5,905 bases of DNA from positions 1 to 5,905 of the forward strand of contig NZ_SNUY01000110.1 of NCBI RefSeq assembly GCF_004376175.1, in the 5' to 3' direction. Made by a program: the position numbers and the translations under genes. Below, piece after piece: positions 1 to 5,905 of the stretch (position 1 is the first letter of the stretch; each line of letters begins with the position of its first letter). A model generated the notes under the pieces. That model had not been told where the DNA came from. It saw only the letters and a list, made by a program, of their open reading frames with translations, and did not search any database. This stretch comes from Halalkalibacterium halodurans (lineage in GTDB: Bacteria > Bacillota > Bacilli > Bacillales > Bacillaceae_D).

Positions 1-947
1 AGACTCGTTACAAAAAATGAATGGGTAAACAACAATTCGCCTGCAGGGCGAACCGATTGGATGATGACCTTTCTCGGCTTAGACCATGATTTCGCTTGAT
101 AGTCGATTTCCTCATAATAACATTCAGACTTTGTCACATCTGACGGTACTGTGGCTGGATGACATTCATCTGCCATTCGCTGTAAAATGGCGTTAGATTT
201 CAAACGAATGACATAATAAACCGATTCACGTTCACATAAATCGTATAGAGCTGGAACGGCAAAACCACTATCGCCGCGTAAGAATGGTGTCGTTGCCGGA
301 AATTTTTCATTGTAATGTTTGATAAGTGGTTCCACAAAATCCACAACACCATTGGACGTATACACATTTCCAGGGCGTAGCTGGGCTTTTAGGAAATCGC
401 CTGTTATCCCATCGAAGGCAACCAATGGATGAAAGCCAACAGTCCCGTAATGGGTATTATAAGCTGTAAATTCTTGTTGGCCGTATGTGTCAGCATGTGT
501 TGAATCTAAATCAATGATGAGTGCTTTTGACTCTCTCAGTTCATGTACTTTATCTAAAAGTTCTTGGTTAGCGTGATGTAATTGTTCAATGGACTCATGA
601 TCAAATCGTGTATAAAAGCGAGATAAACTAGGTTGAGAACCTAACGCATTTGTTCCAATGACTTGTGTAAAAACGGGGTCATTTGTTAATTGATCGGCCG
701 CATCATCCTCGGCATAACCAGCGATGACTTGATAAAGCTTTTGACGAAGTAGATTTTCATTTGAATGAACATGGTATTTTCTCTCGTCGTTCAGATGCAG
801 GTGTTGAACAAGAGTATCAGAGAATCCGATTTTTTCATCAAACTCTCGAAAAACGAATTCACCTGTATCAGAAGAAAGAGAGCCTCCATCAGTTGATAAT
901 TTAATTCGACGATTGAAATCTAGTGTTAGTTGCGGTAAAGTAGCCAT
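1..947 (-). CDS. IS1380-family DDE transposase, N-terminal ~315 codons (3' end runs off the left edge of the window)
   Basis: Absent from the ORF track because there is no in-window stop. Hand translation of the minus strand from ATG 947..945 stays open to position 3: MATLPQLTLDFNRRIKLSTDGGSLSSDTGEFVFREFDEKIGFSDTLVQHL...LYQVIAGYAEDDAADQLTNDPVFTQVIG...LGSQPSLSRF...ALIIDLDSTHADTYGQQEFTAYNTHYGTVGFHPLVAFDGITGDFLKAQLRPGNVYTSNG...FLRGDSGFAVPALYDLCE...YYVIRLKSN...KVIIQSVRPAGELLFTHSFFVTS. The blocks GY-x-D-x-x-D, SQP(S/T)LSRF, D-x-DST..G.QE..YN.HYG..HPL, LRPGN and RGDSGFA are the conserved blocks I recall for IS1380 / DDE_Tnp_1_4 (PF13701) transposases. An SD-like AAGGA lies 8 nt upstream of the ATG. 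Confidence 0.85.
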   Translation of the reverse strand, partial: MATLPQLTLDFNRRIKLSTDGGSLSSDTGEFVFREFDEKIGFSDTLVQHLHLNDERKYHVHSNENLLRQKLYQVIAGYAEDDAADQLTNDPVFTQVIGTNALGSQPSLSRFYTRFDHESIEQLHHANQELLDKVHELRESKALIIDLDSTHADTYGQQEFTAYNTHYGTVGFHPLVAFDGITGDFLKAQLRPGNVYTSNGVVDFVEPLIKHYNEKFPATTPFLRGDSGFAVPALYDLCERESVYYVIRLKSNAILQRMADECHPATVPSDVTKSECYYEEIDYQAKSWSKPRKVIIQSVRPAGELLFTHSFFVTS

Positions 948-1008
948 TATAAGAATCCTTTCTGTGGTTATTTCGTAGCTGTTTTAACCTTATCAGAAAT
1001 GGATTCTT
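1..1008 (-). mobile_element. Partial IS1380-family insertion sequence (transposase-start end); the outer boundary is unresolved and lies somewhere between ~1008 and ~1100
   Basis: It contains the transposase CDS plus its upstream leader. G+C drops markedly to the right of about 1010. The terminal inverted repeat cannot be identified because the other IS end is outside the window. 1008 is a minimal extent that includes the 8-bp inverted repeat 951..958 / 1001..1008. Confidence 0.5.
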
Positions 1009-1118
1009 TTTTCATTTATTTGATGCATGGACCATTTAGCTCAATACCTTGATAGATAAGCATTATTTGGTTATCAAAGATTTTTTATGAATAATTCAGG
1101 ATGAATAATAAGTTATAC

Positions 1119-2132
1119 TTATTTTAAGCAACTTACTAAAAATATAATTATATAGTGAAATGCCTGATCCAATTCCATCATGGTAGGTTGAACGGACTCA
1201 TTTTCTGTATTAGTCATTTTTTTAACATTTTTAGCCCACCATATCAAAATAATTCTCCGATCAATAATTACATGACTCACAAAGATTATAAAAATAGCTA
1301 TCCAACTAAAATATCCTGCAAAGATGTAGCCCATTGCCGTTAAAACTAACGTATAAATAAAACTATGTGATAATAACGCCTTCCAGCTAGTTGTTTTTTT
1401 TACTGCTTGTCGATCTGTTTGAAGTAAATAATCAGCAATCTTATGTCCAATATAAAGTATAATAAATAATTTAATATTAAAATTTACACCGGGAACAAAA
1501 TTATTTATCTCTATAAAGCCAAATATTTTAGAACCAAATAAATAAGTAAACAAAAGCATTATTGTTATTAAAAAGTAAATTACAGCGGTAATTGCTGAAC
1601 TAGCACGAGCAATTTTAACATTCCTTATCAAAGAAATCTTTTGCAACTCAAGCACTAATTCTTTCTCAATAGATATGTTGTCAAGCATTGAAATTTTATC
1701 ATGGTAATCTTTGGCACTTTCCCTTATCTGAAGTTTTTTATAATTTCCATATAAATATTTACCTTTTATTTCAGGTGTTGTTTCGGCTAGAAAAAATAAA
1801 CCTTGAGCATCAAAATCTTTGGTATTAATTTGATTATTAGGATTAATTCGAGGAACCAGAGTCAAATACGACAACCATACACTTTTCAAAAAGAAAAAAA
1901 TCAAAGCTATAATAAAAATTGCAATCAGAAATTGTTCTGATTTATTCTCTAAACCAAACAAAAAATTATACCATTCATTTTTTGTTCGGATAAGAATATT
2001 CATAACTAGTGTCCAAAAAGCAATTACAACTCCTGCTTTCGTATCCGTAAAGCGAATTGTATTTTGCGTATCGTCAATAGCCTTATATAGAAATTCCAAT
2101 TTATTCTTGTCATCTTTTTTTTCATCTGACAA
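1119..2132 (-). CDS. Polytopic membrane protein, candidate effector: N-terminal Pycsar-TM-effector-like domain (3 TM) fused to a DUF3307-like 4-TM C-terminal domain
   Basis: 337-aa ORF from the track. The start is TTG (2132..2130), preceded by GAGGG (2144..2140) with a 7-nt spacer; the next in-frame Met is codon 44, inside the first TM segment. Hydrophobic segments: AGVVIAFWTLVMNILI, FLIAIFIIALIFFFL..VWLSYL, AITAVIYFLITIMLLFTYLF, IKLFIILYIG, LLSHSFIYTLVLTAMGYIFAG, FSWIAIFIIFVSHVII, FHYIIIFLVSCL. The N-terminal pattern (helix ending in RFTDTKAG, two TMs, a ~85-aa soluble loop, a third TM) matches my recollection of PF18967 (Pycsar effector domain, formerly DUF5706). The C-terminal GHKIADYLLQTDRQAVKK ... 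SH ... SHVIIDR matches the H-x3-D-[FY]-x2-Q ... K ... H-x3-D pattern I recall for DUF3307 (PF11750). No Crp-type cNMP-binding barrel or SAVED domain is recognisable. Both domain calls are from memory. Confidence 0.6.
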   Translation of the reverse strand: MSDEKKDDKNKLEFLYKAIDDTQNTIRFTDTKAGVVIAFWTLVMNILIRTKNEWYNFLFGLENKSEQFLIAIFIIALIFFFLKSVWLSYLTLVPRINPNNQINTKDFDAQGLFFLAETTPEIKGKYLYGNYKKLQIRESAKDYHDKISMLDNISIEKELVLELQKISLIRNVKIARASSAITAVIYFLITIMLLFTYLFGSKIFGFIEINNFVPGVNFNIKLFIILYIGHKIADYLLQTDRQAVKKTTSWKALLSHSFIYTLVLTAMGYIFAGYFSWIAIFIIFVSHVIIDRRIILIWWAKNVKKMTNTENESVQPTMMELDQAFHYIIIFLVSCLK

Positions 2133-2135
2133 ACG

Positions 2136-2603
2136 TTATCCCTCACAATCGATAATTTCGTAATTCATGTCCTTTATAACTTCTCCGAATTTATTAATCT
2201 TGTATATAGAAAATTTAACGTTACCATCATGAATTCCAGTAATGATAAAAATAGGAGCATGAGTACTATCGAAATAATTATTAATATTTATCATTGTAGA
2301 CTGATCTAACTTAGAAGGGATTAAGCTGTAATTTCTTGGATGGGAATGCCAAGTACCAATCAAAAATTGGTTTATTTGAAGTTTTTCTTTTACATATTCT
2401 AAAAGGCTATCGTTATCGAATTCAACTTTTGAAAAAGTTCTTTTAGCATTACGCCCTGCATCAGAAACATCTAGAACTCGTACCCATTCTGGATTCATCT
2501 TTCCAAAAATATATCCACCATTTTCAGTATCATTATATTTTACCGTGAGTTTTTCCATTTTTTTAATTACTTTTTTTGAAATATATATTTTCCTTTTTTT
2601 CAT
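2136..2603 (-). CDS. JAB/JAMM (MPN+) metalloisopeptidase, Cap3-like
   Basis: 155-aa ORF. JAMM elements are present in order: the Glu in TENGGYIFG, then GTWHSHPRNYSLIPSKLD (H-x-H ... P-S-x-x-D). Its size is typical of stand-alone prokaryotic JAB proteins. ATG 2603..2601 overlaps the upstream TGA (2602..2600) as ATGA, and an AAGGGAAAG SD-like stretch lies upstream. Confidence 0.88.
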   Translation of the reverse strand: MKKRKIYISKKVIKKMEKLTVKYNDTENGGYIFGKMNPEWVRVLDVSDAGRNAKRTFSKVEFDNDSLLEYVKEKLQINQFLIGTWHSHPRNYSLIPSKLDQSTMININNYFDSTHAPIFIITGIHDGNVKFSIYKINKFGEVIKDMNYEIIDCEG

Positions 2604-4270
2604 ATACTTTCCCTTTCACAAAAACACAAGTGACTTTTATCTAAATAACCGATTAGAGGTGTAGGAATTATATCGTCCATTCCCCAATAATAATTAACAT
2701 AGTCAAATTTAAATTTCCCATGCTTATTATAAAAGGAAAGAATTGACACAATCTGTGTTGCTAAAAAGACCATTCGTTCCATTTGTGATACCGTATGTGG
2801 GTTCCCGCAAATATCAATTTCATTCGAATCGTATTTTTCTATTTCCTTTTGTGATAATTCCTGTATTTGTTTTAAATCTTTATTTTCCTTTGCTTCATGA
2901 TAGTAGCAATTTAAGCATCCTGTAGAGGGAGTAGTTATTACTATCTCTTGTAAGATATTGTTAGCTGATGTCCACGCCCAAATAACAGGCTTTTTATAAT
3001 TTATTAATTTATTAAATGCAAAATAATCAAATTTAGCCGAATCCCCCACAGTTACAATAAGAACATCAGCTAATTCAATTACCTCGTCATCATTAGCCGT
3101 TGCAAAAATATTCTCATGCAAATAATAATTAGATAAAAGTTGTTTTAATGCAAGTGATTTATATTCACCTACATGAATTGAACCTAGTACATGCCTACCA
3201 ATATTTTCAAGAGCCATTTTATCGTAATCCGCCATTAACAAAGCTTTCACATCTTTTTCAGCTAATAATCTCGCAATTTGACTTCCTAAAGAACCTACTC
3301 CTATCATCCCTACTGTCATATCAATTCCATTAGGGCGTTCAGGGATACCTTCTATTTTAATATTAGTTACGTTAAATTCCGCATCTCGCTCAAATGATTC
3401 TCTTCCTGTAATGAAAGAAGTAACCTCTGTCTTTCCTCGATCACCTTTGTACATGATCAAAAAGATTAGGCTTTTTATATCCTTATCTATAGAACTTATA
3501 GGAAAGTTGTTCCTTAGAGTTTGAATCAATTGGTAAAGAGTTTTAAATGAAAAGCCTCTTGGAAGTCGTACAAGAAAAAGAGTCGATTTAGAATGTTTAT
3601 TTGGCAGTCGAAATTGTTTTAGAATATTAAAACCTCTATCTTCACTAAAATCAGGAAAGAAAGAATATGGTTTGTTTGAATCTATGCTTTCATATTCATA
3701 AGTTTCTCCCCTCTTTTTGGTAGAGGCCTCTTTCCCATTTTTAAATAAAAATGGTGTATGATCAACAGTCGTTTTATAAAACTTTTTAAGTTCAATACTT
3801 TCAAATTGATTTATAAATCCTTTAGGTAGATACATTACTAATTGGGTAAATTGAGGTAATATTCTCCACGATATTAAATCTTCCTCTTTCTTCCAGTCTT
3901 GGTTGACATTAGACTGTAACCAGTCTAAAATTCTTTGATAAATAAAATTACCATTGTATTCAACTTTTGCTGCCCAATTATGTAAACAACAAATATAGAA
4001 CTGTGAATTTTTGGGGTTATCAATCAATAATTCATCAATATGTCGCCAATTAGCTGGTATTACTTTATGCAAGTTACTTTCACCATTTATACTAATTAAT
4101 TTTATTGACGGCTGCTTCAAAGGATAATCTTTTATTGAAACCTCTACATTAATATAATAACCATTTTCCTCACCATTTTGAGGGATCCTACCCACACCAA
4201 TAGTTTCTTCAGAAAAGCAGAAACCGAGTTCTTGTAACTCGGCTTTTACTTCTATTAATTGACTACCCAT
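2600..4270 (-). CDS. E2-E1 fusion protein, Cap2-like (N-terminal UBC/E2-like domain, C-terminal ThiF/MoeB-type E1 adenylation domain)
   Basis: The E2-like N-terminus has DYPLKQPSIKLIS...WRHID...FYICCLHNW, i.e. YP-x3-P, a His, then a candidate catalytic Cys. The E1 domain has VGMIGVGSLGSQIARLLAEKDVKALLMADYDKMALENIGRH (Rossmann GxGxxG followed by a D-x-D...N..R nucleotide-binding block). It also has a candidate crossover-loop Cys (IDICGNP) and a CxxC...CxC cysteine set (TGCLNC ... HLCFC) like the ThiF/MoeB zinc site. The start is placed at the internal ATG 4270..4268 (MGSQLIEV...), not the track start at 4363. That ATG has GAGAAGG 6 nt upstream and overlaps the cyclase stop by only 8 nt (ATGGGTAG), whereas the 4363 start would overlap the cyclase gene by 101 nt. 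Confidence 0.85.
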   Translation of the reverse strand: MGSQLIEVKAELQELGFCFSEETIGVGRIPQNGEENGYYINVEVSIKDYPLKQPSIKLISINGESNLHKVIPANWRHIDELLIDNPKNSQFYICCLHNWAAKVEYNGNFIYQRILDWLQSNVNQDWKKEEDLISWRILPQFTQLVMYLPKGFINQFESIELKKFYKTTVDHTPFLFKNGKEASTKKRGETYEYESIDSNKPYSFFPDFSEDRGFNILKQFRLPNKHSKSTLFLVRLPRGFSFKTLYQLIQTLRNNFPISSIDKDIKSLIFLIMYKGDRGKTEVTSFITGRESFERDAEFNVTNIKIEGIPERPNGIDMTVGMIGVGSLGSQIARLLAEKDVKALLMADYDKMALENIGRHVLGSIHVGEYKSLALKQLLSNYYLHENIFATANDDEVIELADVLIVTVGDSAKFDYFAFNKLINYKKPVIWAWTSANNILQEIVITTPSTGCLNCYYHEAKENKDLKQIQELSQKEIEKYDSNEIDICGNPHTVSQMERMVFLATQIVSILSFYNKHGKFKFDYVNYYWGMDDIIPTPLIGYLDKSHLCFCERESI

Positions 4271-5351
4271 GTTGTACCTTCTCTTGTCTTGCAATATGAA
4301 TACTTGCAGCCTTGGCCATTTCAGATGCATCATAAACATTACAATATCCTGCGACTTCTTCAATTGTTATTATTTCATCCTTATATGGCTTACAATCTAA
4401 ATAATATACTTTTCTATTCTGTTTTTGCCCGAACATTTGCCTTTCATAATTAGTATAAAAACATATAGGAACTTCCTCTTTAAAATCCATTAATTCCTTA
4501 TATTTCTCTCCTAGAATTAAAATTCTTCCGTACTTTGGTGAACCTTCTATTTTTTCTTCTTTGATGTCATTATAATAACTTAACAACTTCGCAGAAAAGT
4601 CAATTTCAAATGAAGTAGCCTTTACTTCACCAACAGCTTTCTTTATACCGTTATCATTAACAATAACACCTTGAGGATTCATAAGAGTATTATTGGAGAA
4701 TTCAATTCCTACTTTTATATCAAGTAAATTGTTGGAGCTATTTGCAAACGTTTCTTGACCTTTGTCAATTAAATTTTGCCTTAATTCTTCATTTAATAAA
4801 TCTGTACTTTCAAGTATTCTTAACGCTATAAGAAAAGCCCTAGCACCAATAGTCCAATCATCTGCATCTTCTGGTTGTGTTCCACCAATTAAAATCATCA
4901 AACCATCACCCGTAATGGAGTGAATATGTGCTTGATAATATCTTGCTAACCTAATCCAAGTTGATATTGCTTTTTGCTTTAATTCAGCAATCTCCTGAAT
5001 TGTTTCAATCCCCGGTTCATCTACAAATAATGCTCTTCTAGTAAAATTTCGTAAATCAACAAAAAGTGAACACATTTTAACATCAGCTTTTTGGTTGATT
5101 TCATTATAAAAATCATTTTCCTCTCTAACATTCTCTAATAGATAATCAAAATCTATATGTCCGCCTATTTTAAAACCCTTTTCTAATTCCTGCTTTATAA
5201 TAGTTTCTATTTCTCTTTCTTGCTGCTGATCCTCTGCACTTTTAAATAAATTTTTTTGCTCATTTAATAGTACGGAGAGAGGATTTTTACTTATTTTATA
5301 GCGAGTATTATTCGATATAACTGAGCGATACATTGAACCCTTATTAACCAA
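4263..5351 (-). CDS. Class III nucleotidyl cyclase-like protein (Pycsar PycC-like / adenylate-guanylate cyclase fold) with N- and C-terminal extensions and a C-terminal Gly
   Basis: 362-aa ORF. The order of CHD elements is recognisable. MCSLFVDLRNFTRRA matches the F-x-D-[ILV]-x-[GN]-F-T first metal Asp block (D99, nt 5057..5055). HSITGDGLMILIGG gives the second metal Asp in the GD block (D149, nt 4907..4905). IKVGIEFSN matches the R/K-[IV]-G-[IV]-h-x-G block. SFEIDFSAKLLS aligns by eye to the G..VN.A.R block. GRILILGEKYKEL matches the G.I.vS...y..l block. The track start is TTG 5351..5349, with GGGGG (5363..5359) and a 7-nt spacer. An alternative ATG at 5333 (MYRS...) has a weaker AAGGG SD-like element 4 nt upstream, so the start is uncertain by 6 codons. 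The protein ends ...ARQEKVQHG-stop. Confidence 0.75.
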   Translation of the reverse strand: MVNKGSMYRSVISNNTRYKISKNPLSVLLNEQKNLFKSAEDQQQEREIETIIKQELEKGFKIGGHIDFDYLLENVREENDFYNEINQKADVKMCSLFVDLRNFTRRALFVDEPGIETIQEIAELKQKAISTWIRLARYYQAHIHSITGDGLMILIGGTQPEDADDWTIGARAFLIALRILESTDLLNEELRQNLIDKGQETFANSSNNLLDIKVGIEFSNNTLMNPQGVIVNDNGIKKAVGEVKATSFEIDFSAKLLSYYNDIKEEKIEGSPKYGRILILGEKYKELMDFKEEVPICFYTNYERQMFGQKQNRKVYYLDCKPYKDEIITIEEVAGYCNVYDASEMAKAASIHIARQEKVQHG

Positions 5352-5404
5352 TATTATTCCCCCATTCCTTTATTGTTTAGCTCCATTCTAAATTAGCAAT
5401 CATA

Positions 5405-5440
5405 TAAATAAATTGTAAGATATTTTTGTCAAATCCACAA
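5405..5440 (-). promoter_or_regulatory. Candidate sigma-A-type promoter for the operon
   Basis: Minus strand: TTGTGG (5440..5435), 17 nt, TACAAT (5417..5412). A perfect TTGACA (5432..5427) overlaps this but has only poor -10 hexamers at 16-19 nt. Either element would give a leader of about 50-60 nt to the cyclase start. Such matches are common in AT-rich DNA, so confidence is low. Confidence 0.3.
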
Positions 5441-5470
5441 GATTCATGTCCCTTAAAACCATTACCTTTG

Positions 5471-5520
5471 AACTATAAATCCATTTAACTATAAATCCTT
5501 CACAAAACTTTAACTATAGA
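5471..5520. repeat. Short direct repeat: AACTATAAATCC x2 (5471..5482, 5487..5498) plus a partial third copy AACTATAGA (5512..5520), each preceded by TT(T/G)
   Basis: Read directly from the sequence. The two exact 12-mers are 16 bp apart and the third, degenerate copy is 25 bp further on. The repeats lie about 30-90 bp upstream of the candidate operon promoter. Confidence 0.6.
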
Positions 5521-5796
5521 GAAAGAAAATATCCGTATATTTGGTACATTCGATTATCAGCTGCTCTGAATAATTAAAGTAAGGAATAACTACTGAGGAA
5601 ACAATATATTTTTACTCACAATTTAAGATTAGTTTAAAAATTAAAAAGAGGATTACTAAAATTAGAGTGCGGCATAATTACTACAATTTATTAACAAAGT
5701 TTTATACATTATTTAGTGACTAAAATGAAAAAAACGATCCAAAAAGGAAAGATTTATTAAAATTGAACCATAAAATTTGGTTCTTAGTCAAATGTT

Positions 5797-5835
5797 GGGG
5801 TGGCATAGGAGGGCGAGCCCCTCTTATCCTACCCC
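5797..5835. repeat. Imperfect palindrome GGGGTGGCATAGGAGGG-cgagc-CCCTCTTATCCTACCCC at the AT-rich/GC-richer boundary; possible terminal or subterminal structure of the right-hand IS
   Basis: 14 of 17 positions pair around a 5-nt loop (counted by hand). The palindrome overlaps the stop codon (5826..5824) of the minus-strand partial ORF and coincides with the composition shift. Confidence 0.5.
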
Positions 5836-5905
5836 GAATGTCTGATGTTTGAATTGATGATGCAAGAGAATACGGTTTCGCAAGCGATCATAACGCCGAA
5901 AACCA
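5824..5905 (-). CDS. Probable 3' end (last 26 codons plus stop) of an ISL3-family transposase gene
   Basis: Minus-strand translation from 5904 gives GFRRYDRLRNRILLHHQFKHQTFGVG-stop (TAA 5826..5824). G-F-R-x-[FY]-x-x-[FL]-R-x-R-I-L is the C-terminal motif I recall for ISL3-family transposases (...AYGFRNFxNFRxRIL...). Only 26 residues are visible, so the call is tentative. Confidence 0.4.
   Translation of the reverse strand, partial: GFRRYDRLRNRILLHHQFKHQTFGVG

Follow-up and report, generated by a model that had tools for sequence, protein, structure and literature searches.

A candidate ubiquitin-like role for the C-terminal glycine of a class III cyclase in a type II Pycsar operon

Does the nucleotide cyclase of a bacterial defence operon double as a ubiquitin-like protein, conjugated through its own C-terminal glycine by the enzyme encoded next to it? 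The question is raised by a 5,905-nt stretch of the Halalkalibacterium halodurans assembly GCF_004376175.1 (contig NZ_SNUY01000110.1, positions 1 to 5,905, henceforth referred to as the window), which is 100% identical in sequence to Caldifermentibacillus hisashii N-11 and carries its whole gene set on the minus strand. The window contains a four-gene type II Pycsar (pyrimidine cyclase system for antiphage resistance) operon made up of a PycC-like cyclase, a Cap2-like E2-E1 fusion, a Cap3-like JAB peptidase and a PycTM/DUF3307 membrane effector. An earlier note on this DNA, written from the sequence alone, had proposed that the cyclase is the substrate of the E2-E1 protein. Taken together, the sequence comparisons, structural models and analogy with known systems described below make it likely that the neighbouring E2-E1 protein uses the cyclase as a ubiquitin-like substrate, with Gly362 as the conjugated residue, nucleotide synthesis primed by conjugation, reversal by the JAB peptidase and activation of the effector as the outcome.

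The 362-residue cyclase ends in QEKVQHG followed by a TAG stop. The gene closes with caa (Q360), cat (H361, 4271-4269) and ggg (G362, 4268-4266), and the stop occupies 4265-4263. The ATG of the Cap2-like gene (cap2), at 4270-4268, lies within the His-Gly codons, and the resulting 8-nt overlap on the minus strand (ATGGGTAG, 4263..4270, by direct sequence reading) extends across the cyclase stop; the Cap2-like product begins M-G-S-Q-L-I-E-V. A Shine-Dalgarno-like GAGAAGG for cap2 (4277..4283, minus strand) is embedded in cyclase codons E357-K358-V359 at a distance of 6 nt from the ATG; purine-rich equivalents are found at variable spacing in other loci. Direct reading of the minus strand bore out the terminal Gly, TAG stop, 8-nt overlap and upstream GAGAAGG that the earlier note had described, although its range, 4263-4301, covers the stop and the final 12 codons and leaves the Ser of "SIHIARQEKVQHG" one codon outside. 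Taken singly, neither a terminal Gly nor an 8-nt overlap is remarkable; their conservation goes beyond chance.

By both profile and predicted fold, the signalling enzyme of this operon is a class III cyclase and not a CD-NTase. The open reading frame (5351..4263, minus strand) opens with a TTG, with an ATG six codons further in. Four PADLOC PycC models matched the protein (best E 6.7e-16) while no PADLOC CD-NTase model did; Pfam gave no match, and NCBIfam gave no model for either the cyclase or the effector. A family profile searched against the PDB matched the cytidylate cyclase 8jsf (7.7e-13), which was also the best Foldseek match of the AlphaFold2 model (predicted local distance difference test, pLDDT, 91.9; predicted template modelling score 0.90), followed by classical class III cyclases. 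The metal-binding residues D99 (5055-5057) and D149 (4905-4907) are nearly invariant in the alignment, as is G362. A sister clade makes cGMP (10.64898/2026.08.12.744502), and the product of this cyclase may be cCMP, cUMP or cGMP. One related locus, L022, additionally contains a second, weak cyclase-like open reading frame beside the effector (887-1609, 240 aa, E 3.7e-6).

The cyclase model shows ordered strands and helices up to about residue 340, then a lower-confidence helix at 344-356 and a stretch of about 10 final residues that look disordered. Per-block pLDDT falls from above 90 in the earlier part to 71 (341-350), 52 (351-360) and 42 (361-362). The flexible tail of roughly 60 residues that had been suggested was not supported by this model, in which the flexible part spans about 10-20 residues. 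What the model predicts is a tail of the short, flexible kind expected of a Cap2 substrate, with low pLDDT over about 10-20 residues. The motif K358-V-Q-H-G362 (4266..4280, minus strand), conserved in homologues and of low pLDDT, is the proposed adenylation and conjugation site.

Conservation of this motif was examined in 47 close cyclase homologues at 50-91% identity. The sequence (I/V)(Q/K)HG was retained in 46 of them, at or no more than 6 residues from the C-terminus, and the preceding ~15 residues were variable. The protein stops exactly at the Gly in 37 of the 46, and in the other nine (P0020, P0021, P0024, P0025, P0026, P0029, P0037, P0044 and P0046) it continues for 1-6 residues, namely N, K, L, E, AE, TTK or QHYYSS; the loci of the extended cyclases are L004, L006, L010, L011, L029, L030, L047 and L048. 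In these extended variants the cap2 ATG remains inside the HG codons.

Because the His and Gly codons double as a start site, their conservation could be an artefact of dual coding, the His-Gly being kept only for the cap2 start and ribosome-binding site while Cap2 and JAB act on another substrate. The sequence CATGG, with the cap2 ATG inside the His-Gly codons, was found at 19 of 19 clade loci whose DNA was read, and the His codon was always CAT. At L022, moreover, the ATG falls within the last two codons (tATGca TGA), and a G-initial last codon is therefore forced. Four divergent loci argue otherwise: the cyclase and cap2 genes are separated by a 16-nt gap in L045 and are adjacent without overlap in L044, while in L023 and L043 the cap2 ATG lies 20-23 nt upstream of the cyclase stop. 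All four cyclases nevertheless end in Gly or Ala, and overlap does not explain these ends because the ATG lies away from the terminal codon. Additionally, Gln360 is conserved through synonymous CAA/CAG changes, the extended variants retain HG despite a shifted stop, and there is no ubiquitin-like gene to serve as the other substrate in an operon whose genes abut or overlap. We regard dual coding as an unlikely explanation of the terminal motif.

Whether the terminal residue tracks the presence of the conjugation genes was addressed with 25 context-checked cyclases linked to an E2-E1 gene; JAB was also seen in these loci except where the contig ends. Every one of the 25 has Gly or Ala as its last residue or carries the HG motif with 1-6 residues after it, and together they represent at least seven divergent lineages. 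Among the divergent short-form cyclases traced for context (~30% identity), one ending in ...VIFG is followed by a 608-aa ThiF protein, JAB and PycTM; one ending in ...TMYA by an overlapping E2-domain reading frame cut by the contig end; and one ending in ...IIFG by a ThiF plus Prok-E2_B protein. Downstream of the cyclases ending in ...QGQA, ...MIFG and ...APLA lie ThiF and JAB in each case, with PycTM or cNMP-binding-TIR effectors. In contrast, where E2-E1/JAB neighbours are missing, the cyclase is a longer PycC protein with an AGS_C domain and PycTM as its only partner, and its last residue varies (K, D, I, N, S, R or G). Gly or Ala was the last residue in 17 of 25 linked loci, as against 5 of the 20 unlinked ones (Fisher p = 0.007, kinship ignored), the other eight linked cyclases carrying HG plus an extension. 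Two further unlinked loci, both ending in Lys, bring the unlinked count to 5 of 22 with a terminal Gly; in those five the Gly belongs to the last AGS_C strand, (Y/F)IG, and sister lineages have extensions or K, R or Q instead.

The pattern was also seen on a larger scale. An exhaustive cyclase profile search of 50%-identity representatives of 1.84 billion proteins (E <= 0.001) returned just 215 relatives, which marks the family as rare. Each of the six closest short-form lineages finishes in Gly or Ala, with at most one further residue, compared with 12 of 96 long-form proteins. The check suggested by the earlier note, a comparison of terminal Gly or Ala with E2-E1/JAB neighbours, thus had a clear outcome.

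Several points weigh against the conjugation reading. His-Gly conservation within the main clade is confounded, because the two codons double as the cap2 start, whose ribosome-binding site falls in the tail codons. Since the loci share descent, the Fisher test credits them with more independence than they have. A terminal Gly alone is not diagnostic, because five of the 22 cyclases without E2-E1/JAB have one. Finally, the literature searched contained no biochemical evidence or conjugation experiments for any Pycsar cyclase.

The Cap2-like E2-E1 fusion (556 aa, 2600..4270, minus strand) was identified by Pfam as ThiF (7.8e-14) and matched many PADLOC E1-E2 models (best 2.9e-23). A single-sequence search of the PDB gave weak UBA5 matches only, and profiles were required to reveal Cap2: family profiles placed the Cap2 structures 7tsq, 7to3 and 7tsx ahead of MccB, UBA5 and ThiF. 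These profile matches aligned the adenylation motif alone, and the full-length relationship to Cap2 consequently rests on the fold search, in which the AlphaFold2 model (pLDDT 91.4) matched 7to3_A best, over its full length (E 1.7e-20, TM score ~0.55). The entry 7to3_A is Enterobacter cloacae Cap2 in the Cap2-CdnD complex. Identity to the Cap2 of the cyclic-oligonucleotide-based antiphage signalling system (CBASS) is ~20-30%, over part of the length. The candidate catalytic cysteines, C94 of the E2 domain (3989-3991) and C488 of the E1 domain (2807-2809, in DxCGNPH), are both invariant. The adenylation motif GxGxxG reads GVGSLGS at residues 324-330, and zinc-type pairs are present as CxxC (452/455) and CxC (549/551). 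In alignments extended to distant Cap2 proteins, H77 and C94 of the N-terminal E2-like domain, GxGxxG, D348 and C488 are retained, as nearly always are the CxxC and CxC pairs. At L007 (8067-9742) cap2 is broken into two reading frames and may be a pseudogene.

The downstream JAB/JAMM protein (155 aa, 2136..2603, minus strand), a Cap3-like isopeptidase, matched Pfam Prok-JAB (3.4e-7), PADLOC JAB (1.7e-17) and NCBIfam Cap3 (1.3e-6). Its gene shares a 4-nt ATGA overlap with cap2. The JAMM motif E...HxH...S..D is intact, with E27, H86, H88, S97 and D100 invariant in 18 loci.

These two proteins bear on a narrower possibility, in which the E1 domain acts on the C-terminus of the cyclase, for example modifying it by MccB-like chemistry or simply sequestering it, and regulates the cyclase with no ligation at all. 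MccB and the ThiF/MoeB-type adenylyltransferases do rank just behind Cap2 in the PDB profile search, and the conjugation targets of CBASS are themselves not yet known (PMC10097602). An enzyme that only adenylates would, however, sit poorly with the E2-like domain, whose invariant Cys94 and His77 are kept even with distant Cap2 proteins aligned, and with the full-length match to the Cap2 of a Cap2-CdnD complex. The conserved JAB isopeptidase with its intact, active-type motif also implies that isopeptide products exist. Adenylation without transfer is judged quite improbable.

The cyclase could instead be the target and not the modifier, Cap2 attaching something else to its lysines, or Cap2 and JAB could serve the effector. 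Adjacency alone cannot separate modifier from target. No candidate modifier gene was found in or beside the operon, the C-terminus of the cyclase is the only feature that co-varies with E2-E1/JAB presence, and the effector type varies among linked loci (PycTM, PycTM plus DUF3307, or cNMP-binding-TIR). This arrangement was given very little weight. Each of the three alternatives is less likely than conjugation of the cyclase through its own terminus.

The proposed mechanism follows that of type II CBASS, except that a class III cyclase takes the role of the CD-NTase. What the comparisons establish directly is the gene content, the folds, the conserved residues of catalytic type, and the conserved terminal motif with its link to E2-E1/JAB neighbours; the chemistry, the conjugated partners, any change in cyclase output and the nucleotide made are inferred. 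The short disordered tail of the cyclase (...K-V-Q-H-G362) would enter the adenylation site in the E1 domain of the Cap2-like protein, and the carboxylate of Gly362 would be adenylated there. The cyclase would then be held as a thioester, first on E1 Cys C488 and subsequently on E2 Cys C94, before ligation to an amine on a target. Upon infection, conjugation would prime or boost cyclic-nucleotide synthesis, and the nucleotide would open or activate the PycTM/DUF3307 membrane effector, while the JAB peptidase would strip the conjugates. The proposal that the cyclase is the Cap2 substrate agrees with all of the comparative tests that were run (Cap2 fold, JAB motif, and linked versus unlinked ends).

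A related claim, that no Cap3 trimming would be needed because the Gly is already terminal, held for this gene. Nine of the 46 motif-bearing close homologues, however, extend past the Gly, so the family probably does use JAB for trimming, with JAB also maturing precursors; in relatives with 1-6 residues past the Gly, the peptidase would probably expose it as well. The extended forms look like either ubiquitin-type precursors needing JAB trimming or tolerated read-through after stop loss.

With its PycC-type cyclase and adjacent PycTM effector the operon belongs to Pycsar, and with its adjoining Cap2-like E2-E1 and JAMM-intact JAB to type II Pycsar; the CD-NTase of type II CBASS is not present. 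Type II Pycsar was named by Ye et al. (2024), where the E2-E1 fusion is stated to conjugate the signalling enzyme as in type II CBASS (10.1101/2024.11.21.623953), and a "Pycsar-like-4" subclade has been defined by its E2/E1/JAB neighbours, with ligation to targets suggested (10.64898/2026.08.12.744502). The locus shares with these the class III cyclase, E2-E1 fusion, JAB peptidase and Pycsar effector, and does not differ from them in kind; particular to this member are the DUF3307 fusion of the effector and its place in a Bacillota clade with a QHG end. The category and the proposed logic being already published, the operon is no new kind of system and the conjugation concept is not new. The type II Pycsar literature found contained no terminal-motif analysis, pro-peptide variants, junction architecture or Pycsar experiments.

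In type II CBASS, whose structures include PDB 7to3 and 7tqd (Ledvina 2023), conjugation by Cap2 depends on a Gly or Ala at the end of the signalling enzyme, and this residue is conserved only with full Cap2 and Cap3 (Jenson 2023, PMC10097602). The Pycsar terminal-residue pattern, as judged from the sequence comparison, reproduces the CD-NTase pattern of Jenson et al. (PMC10097602). The two systems likewise share a full-length Cap2 fold, a Cap3-type JAB, the terminal Gly or Ala and a short disordered tail. They differ in that CBASS uses a Pol-beta-fold CD-NTase, a cGAS/DncV-like nucleotidyltransferase, where a class III/PycC cyclase is used here, and in that the last four cyclase residues are conserved here whereas the penultimate residues of CBASS vary (PMC10097602). 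The Ledvina preprint on CBASS makes no mention of Pycsar.

The same accessory module is found with other signalling enzymes. In Thoeris operons with Cap2/Cap3, the TIR protein likewise keeps a conserved Gly at its end, and the signalling enzyme is what sets these operons apart from the present system. In the 6A-MBL Cap2/3 system, Cap2 and Cap3 are fused in one protein and the signalling enzyme is again different; the NCBIfam 6A-MBL cap2_3 model gave partial matches to the Cap2-like and JAB proteins of the window. Canonical type I Pycsar (PycC with PycTM or PycTIR) shares the cyclase family and the PycTM-type effector. The canonical PycC proteins among the homologues compared are ~410-470 aa long with a C-terminal AGS_C, variable ends and no E2-E1/JAB neighbours, while the cyclase described here lacks AGS_C and has a QHG tail. 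A hidden Cap2 or JAB near the gammaproteobacterial ...YIG PycC genes was considered and rejected: a Pfam scan of their neighbours gave PycTM, TniQ and Csy genes only. In the Pseudoalteromonas loci L014, L018 and L021, canonical PycTM and PycC(AGS_C) lie directly upstream of TniQ and Csy2/Csy3/Csy4, a setting that resembles a type I-F CRISPR-associated Tn7-like transposon, of which Pycsar may be cargo or a neighbour. A metagenomic protein, P0112 (493 aa), combines a PycC-like cyclase with a C-terminal E2-like domain (weak UQ_con match, motif ...KHVYSDGSLCLDE...) and is another way to link cyclase and E2.

Immediately beyond the cyclase stop, a terminator scan revealed a conserved terminator-like RNA hairpin (4221..4245, minus strand) with a 10-bp stem and 5-nt loop followed by CUGCUUUUCU, a U-rich tail. 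The hairpin lies inside cap2 codons 9-17, 18 nt past the stop, and RNAfold gave -18.6 kcal/mol with z = -5.1. It was found in 14 of 17 clade loci. By eye, the same stem and U-tract follow the cyclase stop in L047 and the beginning of it in L048, neither of which was folded. In the alignment, 85% of cells were paired compared with 29-57% in slid controls, and three pairs showed compensatory change. At the stem, 10 of 12 loci use CTC for Leu, a rare codon that makes up 7.9% of the Leu codons of these genes, and Glu is encoded by the likewise rare GAG in preference to GAA. A search for the hairpin in divergent type II Pycsar clades found it absent, and it is accordingly specific to the main clade. 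The hairpin may act as an attenuator that adjusts how much cyclase is made relative to the ligase, protease and effector. A more ambitious view is that in this Bacillota clade the cyclase-cap2 junction as a whole is a compact control element, joining the conjugation site, the cap2 start and an attenuating hairpin, and that the extended forms make JAB a true maturation protease; this was held only tentatively and is on balance doubtful.

The last gene of the operon encodes the membrane effector (337 aa, 1119..2132, minus strand), with a PycTM-like N-terminal part (PADLOC PycTM 1.8e-13) and a DUF3307 C-terminal part (Pfam DUF3307 9.8e-12); Pfam PycTM is recorded on orthologues. The effector is retained in the operon at all clade loci. 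The cyclase, Cap2-like, JAB and membrane effector genes occur together in 12 genome and 5 metagenome loci of the clade, and two extended-C-terminus variants also have the set. Separate PycTM-like and DUF3307 reading frames are found at L002 (10220-11229), L007 (10193-11208) and L012 (10183-11211), and as two separate genes at L044 (1177-2218). Because the effector is split in several loci, DUF3307 may be an independent module.

The operon lies ~515 nt downstream of ssrA (transfer-messenger RNA, tmRNA; 6125-6486 of locus L001), whose last 40 nt are found at the end of the window (5866-5905, minus strand). The genes secG, an alpha/beta hydrolase, RNase R and smpB also precede the operon, and a two-component system follows it. 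The ssrA-side position is a typical genomic-island insertion site; a search on both sides of the operon for an att-type direct repeat matching the 3' end of the tmRNA found none, and an Rfam scan of the window at gathering thresholds gave no match. A phage-type integrase gene directly adjoins the operon in L047 (2086-3105). Upstream of the cyclase start are short adjacent direct repeats, GGATTTATAGTTAAAT and GGATTTATAGTTCAAA (window 5467-5498, L001 6854-6885), and a second set of two 24-nt copies with 27 nt spacing (window 5760-5810, L001 6542-6592). Both repeat sets could be operator sites.

To our knowledge, the CD-NTases of CBASS are the only signalling enzymes for which Cap2/Cap3-type conjugation has been demonstrated by experiment. 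This locus and its relatives make a comparative case that the same accessory module has been transplanted onto an unrelated fold, the class III cyclase, with a short C-terminal Gly/Ala tail having evolved each time. They support the view that Cap2 recognises little beyond a flexible tail with a small last residue, and the family offers natural variants with Gly ends, Ala ends and pro-peptide forms. If the tentative junction model is correct, the hairpin would attenuate transcription or translation and leave the cyclase in excess over the ligase, protease and toxic effector, and JAB would be the maturation protease of an enzyme-type "ubiquitin".

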